A stretch of DNA of 64,000 nt from a phage: the sequence record PZ445432.1; one strand, given 5' to 3'. Positions 5,796 to 30,810 of the stretch are shown one piece after another. The notes under the pieces were generated by a model. That model did not search any database, was not told the origin of the DNA, and was given only the letters and a program-made list of their open reading frames with translations. The position numbers and the translations under genes are program-made. How positions within the stretch are numbered: position 1 is the stretch's first letter; the number at the start of each line of letters is the position of its first letter.

Positions 5796-7258
5796 ATATC
5801 GCTGGCCTGTTCACCTGTTGAATTTTCAGTTTTATCTTTCTTAGCACGTTTAGATTGAGCTGGCTTATCCTTTTCAATAGGGATAATGAACTCAGCTTCC
5901 ATTTGAGATATATCTTCCATTGCTAGGTTGGTAGTGTTATCCATCCGCAGAGTTTCCCAGTTCATCTTAGGCATAAACTTCACGCTACCAGAAGAACGGG
6001 TCTTAACGAAGTCAAACATAATAGCACCTTGACCATTATCAGCTTTTGCAGCATTAAGATTAGCAGCCATGTCTGCGGAATCAAGAATCCCCTTTGACAT
6101 ACGTGTTCTACCATCTTGATCGATCTGGTAAGGAGCTACGCCAGCCACGTTATGTTTCTGGCAGATAGATTTGAAAGACGAGCTAACAACCATCTGTTCT
6201 TTCCAGTCATACATATCAATGGTTTTAGAATCTGGAAGTCGGGTTTGGTTAATATAGTCAAGTAAAGCTACTGTAACCTTATCCCCATATCTAGCAACTA
6301 ATTTATTTAACTCTACGTCAACTGTTGTAATAGACAGCTCAGGGTCATAAACAATAATCATAGGAGTATGTAGCTCATATCCTTCTATTAGCTTACTTTC
6401 CATATCGTAGAAATCACTCATCTTAGCCATTGTGTACTGTTTAACGAAGTTATCGAAAAGCTCTTCACCACCATTAAACATTCTAGCTCTAGTTCTGGCT
6501 AATCTCAACAGAGCTGCACCTTCTAGAGTATTATTACGCATTGCTAATGCTGATACACCAGCTAACATGGCTAGATTACGTCTAAATACTTCATGTTCTT
6601 TCATCTCAATTGAGAAGTATGGAGCAATATCCCCATTCAAATATTGCTGAACCTGTATGTTTGAACAGATAATGGATTTACCAGTACCACGCCAACCACC
6701 AAGCAGTAACGTTTCTGTGCGAGCTAAACCAATTTGAGCGTCGAACTCATTACAAATACCAAGAGCGATTAAATTCAGTTTGGTATCTTCTTCTCTCTGG
6801 AAAATACGCATGTTATCTGCGTTGAATACTTTCCCAGTATTCGTTACTTTCTCTTCTAATTTTAAGTGAAGGGAGGCAACTCGGTTAAGAATTTCTCCCT
6901 GATCCAGCATTGTTAAATCTTGAAGCACGTCTGTTTCTAGAAGCTTCAGGAATAAATCCTGTGTATACTCGGCCTCTAGGACTTCAAGTGCCTGTTCCAT
7001 GCTAACTTCTGGAATTTGAGTGTTAGCTAAAACGACTAGAGCTTGAGAAAGGCGGGCGTTCCTATTAGCCTCAAGCATCAGTGCGTCAATGGACGGCATT
7101 GTGTTATATTTTTTATAATAATTCTGGACGGCTTGGTAAATTGAGGAGAAAGCGTCATTAAAATGATCTTTATGCAGTTTTGAGAATGTTTCCAATGCTA
7201 TTTGCTTCTGTTCGGAAGCTAGAAGCATCTTCAACACTACAGCTTGCACGTTAAACAT
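5792..7258 (-). CDS. DnaB-like replicative helicase / RecA-fold ATPase
   Basis: 488-aa ORF with Walker A GGWRGTGKS; translationally coupled to the primase ORF. Confidence 0.65.
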   Translation of the reverse strand: MFNVQAVVLKMLLASEQKQIALETFSKLHKDHFNDAFSSIYQAVQNYYKKYNTMPSIDALMLEANRNARLSQALVVLANTQIPEVSMEQALEVLEAEYTQDLFLKLLETDVLQDLTMLDQGEILNRVASLHLKLEEKVTNTGKVFNADNMRIFQREEDTKLNLIALGICNEFDAQIGLARTETLLLGGWRGTGKSIICSNIQVQQYLNGDIAPYFSIEMKEHEVFRRNLAMLAGVSALAMRNNTLEGAALLRLARTRARMFNGGEELFDNFVKQYTMAKMSDFYDMESKLIEGYELHTPMIIVYDPELSITTVDVELNKLVARYGDKVTVALLDYINQTRLPDSKTIDMYDWKEQMVVSSSFKSICQKHNVAGVAPYQIDQDGRTRMSKGILDSADMAANLNAAKADNGQGAIMFDFVKTRSSGSVKFMPKMNWETLRMDNTTNLAMEDISQMEAEFIIPIEKDKPAQSKRAKKDKTENSTGEQASDI

Positions 7259-7832
7259 TATTTAGCAACTCCTCTGTAAAGTTATCCGCTATATTCTGCG
7301 GTTTAACCCTCTCTATATCTAGAGCATCTAGGGCTGCGAAATCTCCGTACAAGGCTAAAAGCAGCTTATCTCTATACCACAGAGCTTCTCCTAGAGTTTT
7401 TAGGGTTTTTCTAAATACTTTGGAGTTTTTAGATATGGTTACTTTAAATGTGTTATTTTTTGTTACTTCTATGTTACGAATGCCTAGCTTGTTACCTATA
7501 AAGCTATTAGCGGAATTTTGAGAGGAAGTAACTTCACGTAAGTTATTCCAAGTATTATCAGTTTTAATTCTATTTTTATGATCAACCTTGTCAGGGATTT
7601 CTCCTTCCATATATAGAAAGGCCCACCTATGCGCTCCCATAGATTTTTGTATACCTGACTCTAAGGTTATCTTTATGTAAATATAGCCTGATGAATGCAT
7701 ATAGCCTGCAGGTTTGTTAGCGTGCTTAGCATTGAACGCAGGATTATTTTCTCTAGGTAGCCAGTAGAAATTTCCAGTATCAGGCTCATATCTTAATAAT
7801 GTTTTAAGATACTGCTGGGTAATCTCCCCCAT
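7251..7832 (-). CDS. HNH homing endonuclease
   Basis: VDHKNRIKTDNTWNNLREVTSSQNS HNH motif; one of four paralogs (also 26080, 33761, 54277). Confidence 0.8.
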   Translation of the reverse strand: MGEITQQYLKTLLRYEPDTGNFYWLPRENNPAFNAKHANKPAGYMHSSGYIYIKITLESGIQKSMGAHRWAFLYMEGEIPDKVDHKNRIKTDNTWNNLREVTSSQNSANSFIGNKLGIRNIEVTKNNTFKVTISKNSKVFRKTLKTLGEALWYRDKLLLALYGDFAALDALDIERVKPQNIADNFTEELLNNV

Positions 7833-7891: not shown

Positions 7892-8659
7892 TTATTCAGC
7901 AGCCGCAGCTTTTGCATCCAGTTTAGCACGCTTAGCGGCACCATCATAGTCCTTAGCAACCAGACCACGACGAGACAGCATAGATTTAACACCGCGCTCA
8001 GACTTACCAGTTTTCTCAGCGATCTCAGCAACAGTCATGTTAACCAGATCCAGACCTTCTAACAGATCTTCACGAGTTTTAGCACTTGAGGTTTCCTGTA
8101 CCGGCATAGCAGCGATACGACCTTCACGAAGCAGACTCAGAGCTTTACCACGGATCTGTTTGATATTACGACCGAAGTGAGCAGCGATAGCTTCAATAGT
8201 AGCCCCAGCAACAACCTGATTAACAAAGTCAGTTTCTTCATCCGGAGTGAAGGAACGAACAGCAGCAGTTTTTTCGGTTGGTTTAACAGAAGCGGTCATT
8301 TCCAGACTCAGGATCTTACCCTGTACCTGTTTAGCACCGAACTGACCACCAGCCACAGCAGCAGCGATTTCAGCATAAGTATACTGACCAGCATGAGCGT
8401 TCAGGAAATCAACCAGTTCAGCTTCCTGCTCAGGAGTCCACGGGGATTTCTGTACTTCGTTAGCTTTCTGTACTTCAAAACCTTCTTTACGCAGTTTAGA
8501 GCCAACAGAGCGAGCAGTAACATCTTTGCCAGTTTCAGCAGCCAGTTCAGCGGCGATAGCAGCTACTTGTTCTTGAGAGATTACATCAACACCCAGAGCA
8601 GTGGCTTTTGCTTTCAGAGACTCGGTTACACCTTCTACGTTCCAGTTCAGTTTAGACAT
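7892..8659 (-). CDS. putative abundant DNA-binding protein (T5 D5-like)
   Basis: 255-aa Ala/Lys/Glu-rich ORF with host-optimal codon bias; assignment is by position and composition only. Confidence 0.45.
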   Translation of the reverse strand: MSKLNWNVEGVTESLKAKATALGVDVISQEQVAAIAAELAAETGKDVTARSVGSKLRKEGFEVQKANEVQKSPWTPEQEAELVDFLNAHAGQYTYAEIAAAVAGGQFGAKQVQGKILSLEMTASVKPTEKTAAVRSFTPDEETDFVNQVVAGATIEAIAAHFGRNIKQIRGKALSLLREGRIAAMPVQETSSAKTREDLLEGLDLVNMTVAEIAEKTGKSERGVKSMLSRRGLVAKDYDGAAKRAKLDAKAAAAE

Positions 8660-9434
8660 TATTATTTTTCTCCAATAGTTCTTTAATCGACAGGATTTCT
8701 ATCCCATTCGTTTCGGCTTTCTTATAAGATGAGGAAGAACGCTTCGATTCATCCTCACAGATTAGGTATTTGACGTCTTTGGTAACGGATTTCTTAACCG
8801 TATATCCTAGACCTTCTAAATAGTTTGTTGCATCCGTTCTATTTGCAAAATCTTGCAAAGATCCGGTAATACATACCGCGATTCCATTTGGCTGGGCAGC
8901 TAATTCATCCGTAGTGATAATATTAGCTTTAGTGCCCTTAATACCAGTTGAGAATTTCCACGGTAGTTCGATAACATCCTTGCCTTGTGGGGAATTTAGC
9001 CAGGCTTTGTAATTTTCTCCAGCCTTGCCGTCAGCCTTCACATCATGGAAGCTAGTGCAATTTTGGGATAATTTCTTTGCTGCAACCTCTCCAATTAGAG
9101 GGATTCCTAAAGAACCGAGAACTGAACCAAAGTCAATGTCTCCGCGAACTTTAGTATTTAATTCGCTAGTTAACTTAGCGGCAACCTTGCTACCCACGGC
9201 TCTAACCAAATCTTCTTCGGTTAGGTAAAATAGTTCTGAAATCTTCGTCAGCTCCAGCTTCTCAATAGTTTTTGGGCCAAAGCCCTTTAACTTCATTTTT
9301 GAACAGAAGTTCTCAATTAACTTGCTTGATTGCGCTGGACAGTTGGACTTATTACGACAGAATAATTGTCCGTTGACAAGATCTAGCTTAGAACCACAAG
9401 AGGGACATTGTGTTGGAATTTCGATTTTCATCAA
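8652..9434 (-). CDS. ligB: NAD-dependent DNA ligase, C-terminal subunit (Zn finger, HhH, BRCT)
   Basis: CPSCGS ... C ... CPAQ zinc-finger pattern typical of LigA, HhH-like region, BRCT-like AVCITGSL. Confidence 0.8.
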   Translation of the reverse strand: MMKIEIPTQCPSCGSKLDLVNGQLFCRNKSNCPAQSSKLIENFCSKMKLKGFGPKTIEKLELTKISELFYLTEEDLVRAVGSKVAAKLTSELNTKVRGDIDFGSVLGSLGIPLIGEVAAKKLSQNCTSFHDVKADGKAGENYKAWLNSPQGKDVIELPWKFSTGIKGTKANIITTDELAAQPNGIAVCITGSLQDFANRTDATNYLEGLGYTVKKSVTKDVKYLICEDESKRSSSSYKKAETNGIEILSIKELLEKNNNV

Positions 9435-9461
9435 ATTTCTTCCTTATCAATTTATATAAAT

Positions 9462-9490
9462 ATTATAGCAAGTATTTAAGCATTTAGCAA
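9462..9490 (-). promoter_or_regulatory. sigma70-like promoter between the two ligase ORFs
   Basis: Reverse complement gives TTGCTA, 17 nt, TATAAT, followed by the leader cassette. Confidence 0.5.
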
Positions 9491-9633
9491 CTACAATTTT
9501 AATTAACTTTGCTTACCCTCGCCATAACTTTCTATCCCTCAACTGAATGATAATAGTATATACCTAAGCGGCGAAAATGTCAATAACCACTTTATAATTC
9601 CGATATGGTAGATGGGTAGCAAAGGGTTATGTA

Positions 9634-10605
9634 TTAATCGTATACTCGCTCTACTATGCACGGGATTACACCACCAGCACGAATCACTCGAATCTGGCAA
9701 CCGATCTCTAGATCGAGAGAGTTAATATAATCAACGTTATTAAGAGTTGCTTTAACAATTGTAGCATCATCAATAATTACCGGTTCAAAATAACCAACTG
9801 GAGTTACTTTACCCGAAGCCCCCACCTGCCATTCAACTTTAGTAAGAGTTGTAATCTCGCCTTCTTCATCCTCTTTAATAGCGAATGCTCCACGAGGGAA
9901 TTTATTAGTCCAGCCTTCACGGAAGAATTTGTTGTTATCATTAATACGAACAACTTTACCGTCCGTCGGAATCCATTTAAAGAAGGAACGCACATTAACA
10001 ACTGTTAAGAAGTTCTCATTCTCCAGCCAAAGCATATCTTTTAAGTATGATTCTGTAATACCTACAGATTCAGCAGAACACTGGATACCATATGCAACGA
10101 AGATTAAACCACCTTCCCCAATGCGTTGTACGAAATCATCACTATCTTTGAGGTTAATAGCACCAGAGGCAAAGTTACGTTTATTTTCTACTTCTTTTGT
10201 AATTAGAACTTCACCAGTTATTTGAGTAGGTACTTTTTGGGAAATCTTTTTAGGAATATTCAGCAATCTTACGTTGCTTGTGACATCATTCCCTAGAATA
10301 CCGTTACCACGAGTTAGTGCTTGAACAAATTCGCCGTTAATATACAGCAGAGAAATTGCACAACCATCTAACTTATCGGTTTCCACCTGACCTAAAGGAT
10401 TGAATGGTGGTTTATCACCACGGTTATAGTAAACTTTCTGTAAAGAATACATACGATATAGATGTGGAATATCACCCTTAGGCCCGATCTCTTCCTCTAA
10501 TGGGAAGCGTTTTACCAGACGATCATATTCTTCATCAGAGATTAAAGACATTCCCTGGTAATATGCTTCTTGGCAACGTTTAATAAAGTCTTTTACATTA
10601 GTCAT
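9634..10605 (-). CDS. ligA: NAD-dependent DNA ligase, N-terminal adenylation/OB subunit
   Basis: KLDG adenylation motif (KLDGCAISLLY) and an OB-fold-like C-terminus (IRVIRAGGVIP). Confidence 0.8.
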   Translation of the reverse strand: MTNVKDFIKRCQEAYYQGMSLISDEEYDRLVKRFPLEEEIGPKGDIPHLYRMYSLQKVYYNRGDKPPFNPLGQVETDKLDGCAISLLYINGEFVQALTRGNGILGNDVTSNVRLLNIPKKISQKVPTQITGEVLITKEVENKRNFASGAINLKDSDDFVQRIGEGGLIFVAYGIQCSAESVGITESYLKDMLWLENENFLTVVNVRSFFKWIPTDGKVVRINDNNKFFREGWTNKFPRGAFAIKEDEEGEITTLTKVEWQVGASGKVTPVGYFEPVIIDDATIVKATLNNVDYINSLDLEIGCQIRVIRAGGVIPCIVERVYD

Positions 10606-10878
10606 TTATTCTGCCTCATAGTACGTGGGTTGTCTGGTAGATCCGTGCCACGTATAATTTTTGCAAAGATGCAAATATGTAGTTTTTACTAGCCTATCCG
10701 ATAATGGAGAGTATATTTCAGCTATTAATACTTCTTTTTCGTAATAAAGTGAAATCAGTTTATACCCAGCTCTAGTTTTAGTATACTTTTCCCCATTAAT
10801 CTTTTCCTCCCACATGAGTATGAGAGGCTGTCCGATATATGGAAAAGGTTTAAGTGTACTTATATGTATCTTTTTCAC
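10606..10878 (-). CDS. hypothetical protein
   Basis: 90-aa ORF immediately upstream of, and co-directional with, the ligase adenylation ORF. Confidence 0.45.
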   Translation of the reverse strand: MKKIHISTLKPFPYIGQPLILMWEEKINGEKYTKTRAGYKLISLYYEKEVLIAEIYSPLSDRLVKTTYLHLCKNYTWHGSTRQPTYYEAE

Positions 10879-10908
10879 TTTGCAACCCTCTCATTAATTT
10901 ATATAAAT

Positions 10909-10964: not shown

Positions 10965-11273
10965 CTAGGCATTCTTGGCTTTGAGTTCTTCAGCTCGTTT
11001 CTGTACTTCATGTAAAACCTCAGATTCGCTAAGAATCTGTGTAAACGCATAGAAAAGCTGTGATGTTGTTTCTAGGGTGTAAGGAAAAGAGAAGCCAGAT
11101 TTCGTTGGAAACCATTCATCATTAATATCAAGAAGCCAGTAACGAATACCCATGTATAGATTCCCACGAAATTCAGATACTGTTAATCTTACTTGTTCCC
11201 CCTCCCTCTCCCAAAGTATGATGGACTGGTCATCAACGTGTCCTTCATAGTTTTGATTTACCTGTTCGCTCAT
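10965..11273 (-). CDS. hypothetical protein
   Basis: 102-aa ORF; a terminator-like hairpin overlaps its 3' end. Confidence 0.45.
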   Translation of the reverse strand: MSEQVNQNYEGHVDDQSIILWEREGEQVRLTVSEFRGNLYMGIRYWLLDINDEWFPTKSGFSFPYTLETTSQLFYAFTQILSESEVLHEVQKRAEELKAKNA

Positions 11274-30781: not shown

Positions 30782-30810
30782 TTGCTAAACGCTTCAAATT
30801 CTAGTATAAT
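30782..30810 (+). promoter_or_regulatory. sigma70-like promoter
   Basis: TTGCTA, 17 nt, TATAAT. Confidence 0.5.

Follow-up and report, generated by a model that had tools for sequence, protein, structure and literature searches.

The NAD+-dependent DNA ligase of bacteriophage T5 is encoded by two genes, and the split enzyme was reported in the T5 genome paper of 2005 (Wang et al., as cited in a passage of PMC1684257); T5 ligA and ligB are also listed in PMC3632103. A further passage of PMC1684257 records that a LigN fragment with just the Ia, adenylation and OB domains keeps self-adenylation. Structures are available for a related enzyme as PDB entries 9hu3 and 9i5i, released in January and February 2026 under the title 'PR1 phage heterodimeric DNA ligase in complex with 21-mer nicked DNA', and chain B of these entries is 100% identical to a gene product of the T5-like Providencia phage PR1/PSTCR5 (vB_PreS_PR1). 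Our literature search found no paper for this structure or on a heterodimeric or two-subunit DNA ligase. Bacterial LigA, as exemplified by the enzymes of E. coli (PDB 2owo) and Thermus filiformis (PDB 1dgs), is in contrast one chain of about 670 residues. A precedent of a different kind is Aeh1 NrdA, which was split into NrdA-a and NrdA-b by insertion of mobE (PMC3045599). Like the T5-type ligase, it is an essential enzyme of DNA metabolism, encoded by two adjacent genes and reassembled without RNA or protein splicing; its gap, however, holds a homing endonuclease gene, and activity requires the insertion-derived tails that both fragments carry.

We have analyzed a ligase locus in a phage sequence of 64,000 nucleotides (record PZ445432.1), here called the window, which is 100% identical to MZ501074, the sequence of Escherichia phage HildyBeyeler (Bas33, Tequintavirus). 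The MZ501074 annotation names the two ORFs as the A and B subunits of the ligase, the upstream one as 'NAD-dependent DNA ligase A subunit'. The split ligase is thus real but already known, being annotated and published for T5, whose RefSeq record also names the promoters; what is added here are unsplit syntenic orthologues, a linker break without tails, a pair of nearest relatives of which one is split and the other is not, and the occasional presence of a GIY-YIG gene in the spacer. We conclude that the locus very probably encodes a heterodimeric NAD+-dependent DNA ligase typical of the T5-like phages (Demerecviridae), derived from an ancestral single chain, and that the spacer between the two genes is a regulatory module.

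An earlier note, made from the sequence alone, had described a ligase divided between two minus-strand ORFs, and both ORFs are found where it placed them, with the domains distributed as it claimed (Table 1). Its Zn/HhH/BRCT half, given as 8652–9434, does correspond to an ORF (260 aa when read from a TTG), but not to the most probable start: the ATG at 9431 is the likelier one, since it is the annotated start in the deposited record and lies 7 nt after AGGAAG. The gap, which the note put at about 200 bp, measures 202 nt. The 'cassette' promoter that it placed there does belong to a family that recurs in the window, but the minus strand carries two sites and not one.

Table 1. Coordinates of the features of the HildyBeyeler ligase locus, given as positions in the window
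Feature	Position	Strand	Description
ligA	9634..10605	-	323 aa; Ia, adenylation and OB domains; from ORF, Pfam and MZ501074 annotation
ligA-ligB spacer	9432..9633	-	202 nt, non-coding; two tandem early promoters and the ligB ribosome-binding site
P-K28b counterpart (putative)	9529..9603	-	-35 TTGACA 9583-9578; -10 TATACT 9560-9555; 17-nt spacer
P-K28a counterpart (putative)	9436..9510	-	-35 TTGCTA 9490-9485; -10 TATAAT 9467-9462, TG before the -10; 17-nt spacer
ligB Shine-Dalgarno AGGAAG	9439..9444	-	7 nt ahead of the ligB ATG (9431); read from the sequence
ligB	8652..9431	-	259 aa and stop; Cys4 Zn finger, HhH repeats, BRCT
D5 DNA-binding protein gene	7892..8659	-	ATG overlaps the end of ligB (ATGTCTAA)

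The context is the conserved one, with ligA, a spacer with tandem promoters, ligB, D5 and the replicative helicase gene in this order, and a D5 homologue comes next after the ligase in every relative examined, whether split or unsplit. Because its ATG overlaps the end of ligB, D5 is in the same transcription unit as ligB, downstream of the spacer promoters, and its translation is probably coupled to that of ligB. The T5 genes (T5.116/T5.117; AAU05253/AAU05254) are orthologues of ligA and ligB, their products being 99% (LigA) and 96% (LigB) identical to those of HildyBeyeler, and T5 has the same 202-nt spacer, the two promoters and the downstream order ligB-D5. HildyBeyeler differs from T5 in that an extra 90-aa ORF abuts the start of ligA, where T5 has an annotated promoter, and in an HNH endonuclease gene, two genes downstream of the ligase, between D5 and the helicase gene.

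The ligA product matches the Pfam families DNA_ligase_aden (PF01653; 1.2e-23, 84 bits against a cut-off of 27) and DNA_ligase_OB (PF03120; 3.8e-22), and ends 8 residues past the last OB motif (GGVIP). It aligns with chain A of 9hu3 (E = 6e-104) and, over residues 214–320, with residues 284–390 of E. coli LigA (2owo); its AF2 model (pLDDT 86.8) has 9hu3_A and 9i5i_A as best PDB matches (TM 0.82–0.84). The catalytic lysine in the KxDG motif of the adenylation domain is present, and K78, D80, G81, R99, E132 and K244 are invariant among 25 homologues with 47–100% identity. The first 33 residues are predicted to form two helices in the AF2 model, and in this region the same 25 homologues all have Y15 and Y27, and nearly all have D28. 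From an alignment by eye and from what is published on LigA, we take these three Ia residues to be the equivalents of E. coli Y22, Y35 and D36; the Ia-domain Tyr and Asp residues confer NAD+ use in ligases of the LigA type.

The ligB product begins 8 residues ahead of its CPxC motif, and C9, C12, C25 and C31 of the Zn finger are invariant in 20 homologues with 51–100% identity. A BRCT domain is recognized above the Pfam cut-off (8.3e-8), whereas the HHH_2 match (2.6e-5) reaches 24.7 bits and falls under the curated cut-off of 27 bits. Residues 3–122 nevertheless align with the Zn/HhH region of E. coli LigA (402–529 of 2owo), residues 3–251 align with residues 400–653 of 1dgs, and the protein matches 9hu3_B with an E value of 6e-81. 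Both halves are under purifying selection (dN/dS of 0.02–0.13 for ligA and 0.10–0.22 for ligB). All the domains of a LigA-type enzyme are therefore present, although across two chains, and the HildyBeyeler ligase would depart from bacterial LigA in architecture and not in chemistry. The two share domain order, the KxDG lysine motif and the Cys4 finger, but they are about 25–30% identical and the phage form, with 323 + 259 residues, is more compact. The PR1 ligase shares the two-chain architecture and is broken at the same point, with about 53% (A) and 55% (B) identity, and its LigB is 11 residues shorter than that of HildyBeyeler, in the stretch before the BRCT domain.

The ligA and ligB ORFs are in different frames, and stops occur in all three frames across the 202-nt spacer, so no single frameshift correction joins the halves. 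The spacer differs from that of T5 by one base; of 31 Tequintavirus/Epseptimavirus loci, 30 have a spacer of exactly 202 nt, and a Klebsiella phage has one of 199 nt. Across 30 relatives it is 99.0% identical, against 86% and 93% at the third codon positions of ligA and ligB, respectively. In the window, no coding-strand ORF of at least 30 aa lies wholly inside the gap, and an Rfam scan of positions 8400–10900 returned nothing at E ≤ 1, introns included. A scan for terminator-like sites found none in the spacer, so that ligB may also be read from promoters upstream of ligA. An extra segment of about 190 bp in phage ZJUN2, considered as an insert in the gap, turned out to be a small ORF upstream of ligA, outside the gap.

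The features 'promoter P-K 28b' (66366–66440) and 'promoter P-K 28a' (66459–66533) of the T5 RefSeq record NC_005859 map onto the two sites of the spacer. A consensus scan scores the P-K28b counterpart at 11/12 and the P-K28a counterpart at 10/12 plus the TG, but over the 5.5-kb region that scan shows no enrichment (14 sites, against 14.1 expected from shuffles); it is conservation and the T5 annotation, and not the scan, that speak for the reality of both sites. Klebsiella and Vibrio phages have TTGACA-17-TATACT, ending 125–126 nt short of the ligB ATG, a Proteus phage has TTGACG-17-TATAAT at the same distance, and in the phages of all three hosts a -10 site preceded by TG is kept 29–31 nt upstream of the ligB ATG. 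The window contains about 30 promoters of the TTGCT...TATAAT type. The P-K28a counterpart, which belongs to the T5 early-promoter family repeated through the window, has a -10/leader segment that recurs at several other sites there. P-K28a and P-K28b were reportedly characterized experimentally as T5 promoters by Gentz and Bujard in 1985, and our literature search found no paper on them or on the mapping of T5 transcription starts. In HildyBeyeler we regard both as putative promoters, on the strength of the T5 RefSeq feature names and of their conservation. The comparison of the gap with relatives, proposed in the earlier note as a search for footprints of an excised element, revealed a near-identical spacer in close relatives and tandem promoters that are kept even in Vibrio T5-like phages; since the spacer itself is a conserved regulatory module, no such footprint is needed to explain it. 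As a separate observation, the leader from P-K28b folds better than shuffled sequences (z = -3.6), for which we found no ground to propose a structured RNA.

More than 1000 phage records match a fused LigA-LigB query, every Demerecviridae record among the matches listed matches it in two pieces, and the best 120 homologues of each ligase half are all half-sized. Single-chain orthologues of 555–586 aa do occur, however, in environmental T5-like contigs with the order ligase, D5, DnaB, DnaG and Pol A; they include P0273 (566 aa), P0282 (557 aa) and P0310 (568 aa), and the T5-like synteny is found around the unsplit genes of L037, L038 and L043. Their total length is that of HildyBeyeler LigA plus LigB, and in a joint alignment they are 35–43% (A part) and 27–38% (B part) identical to the HildyBeyeler proteins (36–46% for the A-part match by phmmer). 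The neighborhood is also that of HildyBeyeler, with a gene for a PC4-like protein or T5_A2 upstream, and D5 (36%, E = 2e-49), DnaB, DnaG and Pol A downstream. In the unsplit genes the frame is continuous, with 17–31 residues from the OB fold to the Zn finger, and we found inside them no promoter-like site that approaches those of the spacer in strength. The break lies in this variable linker: most split forms have 14–16 residues between the motifs, with tails of 6–8 and 8 residues that are jointly no longer than the unsplit linker. Neither LigA nor LigB carries extra interaction tails like those of Aeh1 NrdA.

The two alternatives offered by the earlier note, a two-subunit enzyme and an ancestral split, are compatible and both are supported, one by the homology of the two products to chains A and B of 9hu3/9i5i and the other by the unsplit orthologues in syntenic contigs. 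As in T5, adjacent genes on the same strand are broken at the OB/Zn linker, and both chains are homologous to those of the heterodimer and of T5. In the sequence of events that we propose, an ancestral and compact single-chain ligase of the LigA type would have been broken at the linker, short and variable, that joins the OB fold to the Zn finger. The ligA product is the catalytic half (Ia, adenylation, OB), expected to self-adenylate with NAD+, and the ligB product the DNA-binding half (Zn, HhH, BRCT). By analogy with the PR1 enzyme, HildyBeyeler LigA and LigB would associate non-covalently around nicked DNA, forming a heterodimer that seals the nick. Ahead of the ligB ribosome-binding site, a tandem pair of sigma-70 early promoters corresponding to P-K28b and P-K28a would start or boost transcription not only of ligB and D5 but also of the replication genes downstream of them, and LigB may be expressed at a higher level than LigA, or with a timing of its own.

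The correct order of the halves on one strand, in different frames, is also what would be expected if a frameshift or nonsense error, either in sequencing or assembly or in a recent pseudogene, had broken a single gene. The contiguous frame that the earlier note proposed to seek after frameshift correction is nevertheless absent, and the stops in all frames, together with a spacer whose length and near-identical sequence recur in 30 of the 31 close relatives, all sequenced independently, lead us to reject an artefact, whose probability we consider negligible. Moreover, the number of phage records that match the fused query exceeds 1000, each half has its own start codon and Shine-Dalgarno sequence, dN/dS is well under 1 for both, the active-site and Zn-binding residues are invariant, and the enzyme of a relative (PR1) was crystallized as two chains. 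It is just as hard to credit that a single-chain ligase is restored by removal of an element after transcription or translation, even though introns and inteins often interrupt phage genes and ORFs do lie between the ligase halves in some relatives. Those of the Vibrio phages are a DprA-like gene and small unknown ORFs, and the distance between the halves ranges from 199 to 1374 nt. A group I or II intron was discarded on the Rfam result (no match in 8400–10900 at E ≤ 1), and a split intein because the 8 residues after the OB motif and the 8 before the Zn finger leave no space for intein halves, extra residues being absent at both termini. A bypass of the gene-60 type was set aside in view of the 202-nt spacer and of the only GAT near the ligB start, which is followed by a codon out of the ligB frame. 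The spacer, moreover, carries annotated promoters and the Shine-Dalgarno sequence and ATG of ligB, and the A and B chains are separate in 9hu3/9i5i.

How the split arose, and what maintains it, are matters on which other readings deserve more weight. Insertion of a mobile homing endonuclease, as for Aeh1 nrdA/mobE (PMC3045599), with the spacer as the remnant after endonuclease loss, seems to us unlikely. It finds some encouragement in Salmonella phage SP3, which has a 592-bp GIY-YIG ORF directly after ligA (Pfam, 1.1e-5) and whose ligA drops in identity to the window from about 0.95 to 0.69–0.76 in the last 216 nt beside that ORF, and in the HNH gene downstream of the HildyBeyeler ligase. The GIY-YIG ORF, however, is found in 3 of 50,697 phage records (SP3 and two others), upstream of an intact promoter pair, and from its rarity and position it looks like a secondary arrival. 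No homing endonuclease is present in the gap of the window, T5 or the Klebsiella, Proteus and Vibrio relatives; in the Vibrio and Proteus gaps, searches with Pfam and PHROGs detected no such gene, and what they returned was a DprA-like family (phrog_768) together with small unknown ORFs. The HildyBeyeler ligase thus differs from Aeh1 NrdA in having promoters and no endonuclease in the gap, and no added, insertion-derived tails on LigA or LigB. The promoter pair is the oldest conserved content of the gap, and a promoter-bearing insertion or the simple evolution of a stop and a start in the linker fits at least as well. Slightly better placed, although still rather improbable, is the idea that uncoupled regulation was itself selected, the promoters between the halves letting LigB, with D5, differ from LigA in amount or timing. 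Possibly, ligase would be tuned so that the site-specific nicks of T5 type persist in packaged DNA, or LigB would act independently of the ligase, by binding nicks or as a scaffold. In phages of hosts from E. coli to Vibrio, the tandem promoters keep their distances to the ligB ATG even where genes have been inserted after ligA, the conservation of the spacer exceeds that of synonymous sites, and ligB overlaps D5. A relative whose split looks independent (L042) has its own, different-looking promoter, TTGACT-17-TATAAT, 25 nt before ligB, and one PDB entry was solved with a 'phage nick sequence', which indicates that others have tied the T5-type ligase to genome nicks. On the other hand, the promoters may be there simply for D5 and the replication genes, ligB being a passenger, and the unsplit relatives cope without an internal promoter.

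The T5-type ligase is a clean natural case of an essential enzyme that tolerates a cut at a domain linker without interaction tails, which may be of some use for engineering split ligases. The early promoters inserted at the cut bear on how the regulation of phage operons can shape gene architecture, and the unsplit syntenic orthologues give a handle on when the cut happened and on whether it affects fitness.

As to the number of events, neighbor-joining trees require, in all bootstrap replicates, 5–11 changes between the split and unsplit states, where shuffled states require about 21; these trees are distance-based, and the branches concerned are all below 50% identity. The D5 identities alone fit a single fission for the cultured phages, and we have accordingly toned down a scenario of many independent fissions drawn from the trees alone. 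We tentatively entertain, as a possibility short of an even chance, that the OB-Zn linker is a recurrent point of fission, or of fission and re-fusion, at which each split lineage would house a strong promoter for the replication operon downstream. The split L042 and the unsplit L043 are mutual nearest relatives in DnaB (44% identity, against 29–35%), in the LigA part (50%, against 41–45%) and in the LigB part (45%, against 33–37%), and are equally distant from the cultured Demerecviridae; this pair hints at more than one change of the split state.

The split ligase in the window is the heterodimeric NAD+ ligase that T5-like phages encode as ligA and ligB, with the promoters P-K28b and P-K28a between the two genes, and as such is already known: the split enzyme of T5 was described along with its genome in 2005 (Wang et al., cited in PMC1684257), T5 ligA and ligB have been listed (PMC3632103), and A and B subunits are mentioned for phage Stitch (PMC4319617). 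The feature is real, and the earlier note was correct both in describing an NAD-dependent ligase split into two minus-strand ORFs, as ORF coordinates and domain matches bear out (see table), and in interpreting it as a possible two-subunit enzyme. PDB entries 9hu3 and 9i5i each hold one 339-aa chain and one 248-aa chain, the latter named 'DNA ligase subunit B', which match the window proteins with E values of 6e-104 (LigA) and 6e-81 (LigB); they are also the top PDB matches (TM 0.82–0.84) of an AlphaFold model of LigA (pLDDT 86.8). One is entitled 'PR1 phage heterodimeric DNA ligase in complex with 21-mer nicked DNA containing phage nick sequence' (2026-01-14); the other, released 2026-02-18, is the same complex with random-sequence DNA. 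Because these are heterodimers whose chain B is 100% identical to a gene of the T5-like Providencia phage vB_PreS_PR1/PSTCR5, the two-subunit reading is experimentally established in a relative, the PR1 enzyme. Our literature search found no accompanying paper. An archaeal LigN fragment with Ia, adenylation and OB domains alone retains self-adenylation (PMC1684257). Mildly new here are only the existence of unsplit orthologues in the same gene order, the finding that the promoter module is conserved throughout the family, and a hint of more than one change in the split state.

Features of the ligase region and of compared loci (window positions unless a locus of a relative, L, is named)
Feature	Coordinates	Strand	Remarks
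ligA ORF	9634-10605	minus	323 aa; adenylation domain 1.2e-23, OB domain 3.8e-22
ligB ORF	8652-9434	minus	260 aa from TTG (9434) or 259 aa from ATG at 9431; BRCT 8.3e-8; HhH, below Pfam's cut-off
Spacer	9432-9633	minus	202 nt, between ligA and ligB
First promoter-like site	9583..9555	minus	TTGACA-17-TATACT; same direction as genes
Second promoter-like site	9490..9462	minus	TTGCTA-17-TATAAT, TG before -10; same direction as genes
T5 'promoter P-K 28b', mapped	9529-9603		RefSeq feature
T5 'promoter P-K 28a', mapped	9436-9510		RefSeq feature
ligB stop/D5 start overlap	8652-8659	minus	ATGTCTAA
HNH homing-endonuclease gene	7251-7832	minus	Pfam HNH_3, 5.5e-14; between D5 and replicative helicase
90-aa ORF	10606-10878	minus	phrog_35018, 8.5e-51; function unknown; abuts ligA start codon
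PC4-like gene	10965-11273	minus	Transcriptional coactivator p15 fold, small protein; just upstream of ligase
PC4-like gene, environmental contigs	L042 3721-4008; L043 4784-5053; L037 1928-2179
GIY-YIG homing-endonuclease gene	L023 4465-5106		Salmonella phage SP3 (MG387042), ligA–ligB spacer
Inserted genes	L032 2469-3687; L033 2469-3448		Vibrio phages Cilsick and pVp-1, ligA to promoter module

Two details of the earlier observation needed correction: ligB probably starts at the ATG, and the gap holds two promoter-like sites, not one. The two ORFs lie in different reading frames and stops occur in all three frames across the spacer; therefore, the continuous frame after frameshift correction that the earlier note named as its refutation does not exist. 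Over the 2.5 kb around the ligase, the window matches Escherichia phage HildyBeyeler (Bas33, MZ501074, Tequintavirus) at 100% identity; that record names the two products 'NAD-dependent DNA ligase A subunit' and 'B subunit'. At the DNA level the stretch has matches in 492 phage records. A fused LigA+LigB protein query matched 1146 records of the phage collection; among the matches listed, it was in two pieces in every Demerecviridae record (phages of Escherichia, Salmonella, Klebsiella, Proteus, Providencia and Vibrio) and in one piece only in unrelated phages, at ≤28% identity. The best 120 homologues of LigA (47–99% identity) are all of 310–340 aa save one partial sequence, and those of LigB of 247–263 aa save two shorter entries. 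The KxDG motif (K78, D80, G81), the Ia tyrosines and further catalytic residues do not vary among 25 A subunits, nor do the four Zn-finger cysteines among 20 B subunits, and dN/dS is 0.02–0.13 for ligA and 0.10–0.22 for ligB. Conservation and selection rule out an artefact or a pseudogene; the split is functional and old. In phage ZJUN2 (vB_EcoS_HZ_ZJUN2, PP216084; L036 753-1397) the deposited LigB annotation spans just 645 nt, probably through a mis-called start; the genome nonetheless holds a full 259-aa LigB frame (98.8% identity).

The spacer reads as a conserved promoter module. Only one position separates it from that of T5, the mapped P-K28b and P-K28a stretches each enclose one of the scanned sites, and no terminator-like site was detected within the 202 nt. 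When 30 close relatives are compared, identity is 99.0% in the spacer, as against 86% (ligA) and 93% (ligB) at third codon positions. Of 31 loci, 30 have a spacer of precisely 202 nt; the exception, in a Klebsiella phage with a ligase only 71% identical, has 199 nt. Among phages of Klebsiella and Vibrio, with protein identity falling as low as 50%, TTGACA-17-TATACT ends 125–126 nt 5′ of the ligB ATG, with TTGACG-17-TATAAT at the matching distance in Proteus; in all three groups a second site, with TG before TATAAT, ends 29–31 nt 5′ of that ATG. The word 'cassette', applied earlier to the promoter, is apt, since the second site belongs to the window's family of about 30 TTGCT…TATAAT early promoters and its -10/leader segment recurs elsewhere. 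Because ligB overlaps D5, the DNA-binding protein gene, the module stands at the head of a unit comprising ligB, D5 and replication genes further downstream; the overlap also suggests that D5 is translationally coupled to LigB. The presumed P-K28b leader (9432-9548, minus) folds at -26.1 kcal/mol (z -3.6 vs shuffles) and carries an SD-like GAGGGA followed by an 8-codon mini-ORF (9499-9525, MARVSKVN). Vibrio phages share the TTGAGGGA motif that follows the first promoter, but lack the ATG.

Cluster representatives were searched exhaustively; besides half-sized proteins, the matches included single chains of 555–586 aa that match LigA end to end (36–46% identity) and then, past a linker, continue with Zn, HhH and BRCT domains. 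Three were traced to environmental T5-like contigs: P0273 reads ligase, D5 homologue (36% identity, E 2e-49), DnaB, DnaG, Pol A; P0282 reads T5_A2-like, PC4-like, ligase, a 237-aa D5 homologue (43% identical to the window's D5), DnaB, DnaG; and in P0310 T5_A2 and PC4-like genes precede the ligase. Since this is the neighbourhood seen in the window, the ancestor very probably had one compact, undivided ligase gene here. The PC4-like/ligase neighbourhood is itself very old, because the PC4-like gene lies just upstream of the ligase in split and unsplit environmental contigs alike. LigA 214–320 aligns with E. coli LigA 284–390 and LigB 3–122 with 402–529; LigA ends 8 residues past the last OB motif and LigB starts 8 residues ahead of CPxC. 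Family-wide, these tails mostly measure 6–8 and 8 residues, and their sum does not exceed the 17–31 residues that unsplit relatives have between the same motifs. The break caused no loss and added no interaction tails, in contrast to the split NrdA of phage Aeh1, where insertion-derived tails are essential (PMC3045599).

An intron (no Rfam match in 8400-10900 at E ≤ 1), a split intein (junction without additional residues) and translational bypass (spacer too long, landing codon out of frame) were ruled out. The spacer is a present-day landing site for mobile DNA: in SP3 a GIY-YIG gene directly follows ligA, its start overlapping the ligA stop, with the promoters intact downstream, and the last 216 nt of ligA beside it are only 0.69–0.76 identical to the window (about 0.95 elsewhere), a pattern suggestive of a co-conversion or target-immunity tract. 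Such a gene could have caused the original split; however, just three phage records carry it, no endonuclease occupies the gap in any other lineage examined, and the oldest shared gap content is the promoter pair, so that we consider an endonuclease origin possible but unlikely, and dispensable as an explanation. The two or three genes inserted in the Vibrio phages, a DprA-like family (phrog_768, ~1e-48) and small unknown ORFs, all lie between ligA and the promoter module, none between module and ligB. In Proteus phage PL1 a gene annotated as DprA-like is upstream of ligA.

Whether the gene was cut once or several times is a separate matter. By D5 identities the unsplit L038 lineage lies beyond every cultured split phage, consistent with a single fission. 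Split and unsplit ligases are nevertheless interleaved in a distance tree, on which parsimony counts 8 state changes (5–11 in 40 bootstraps) vs about 21 for shuffled states. Moreover, the split environmental phage L042 (ligA, 123-aa ORF, ligB; LigB 36% identical to the window's, E 2e-37) and the unsplit L043 are mutually closest on DnaB and on the LigA and LigB parts, and equally distant from the window, which would need at least two changes of split state. Because all these comparisons lie below 50% identity, we keep recurrent change as a tentative hypothesis, which we hold to be less likely than not. L042 has a promoter-like TTGACT-17-TATAAT 25 nt 5′ of ligB.

Near the ligase genes, two differences in gene content from T5 were noted: in T5, D5 is directly followed by D6, without the HNH gene, and an annotated promoter stands in place of the 90-aa ORF. 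ZJUN2 has a further 66-aa ORF inserted beside the ligA start. Across the window, about 30 sites of T5 early-promoter type (TTGCT-17-TATAAT, often with TG before; for example 30782-30810, plus) lie mostly on the plus strand beyond 22 kb and mostly on the minus strand before it; that at 13179-13151 (minus) reads TTGCTTTCAGGAAAATTTTTCTGTATAAT, which we take to be the classical T5 P-N25 core.
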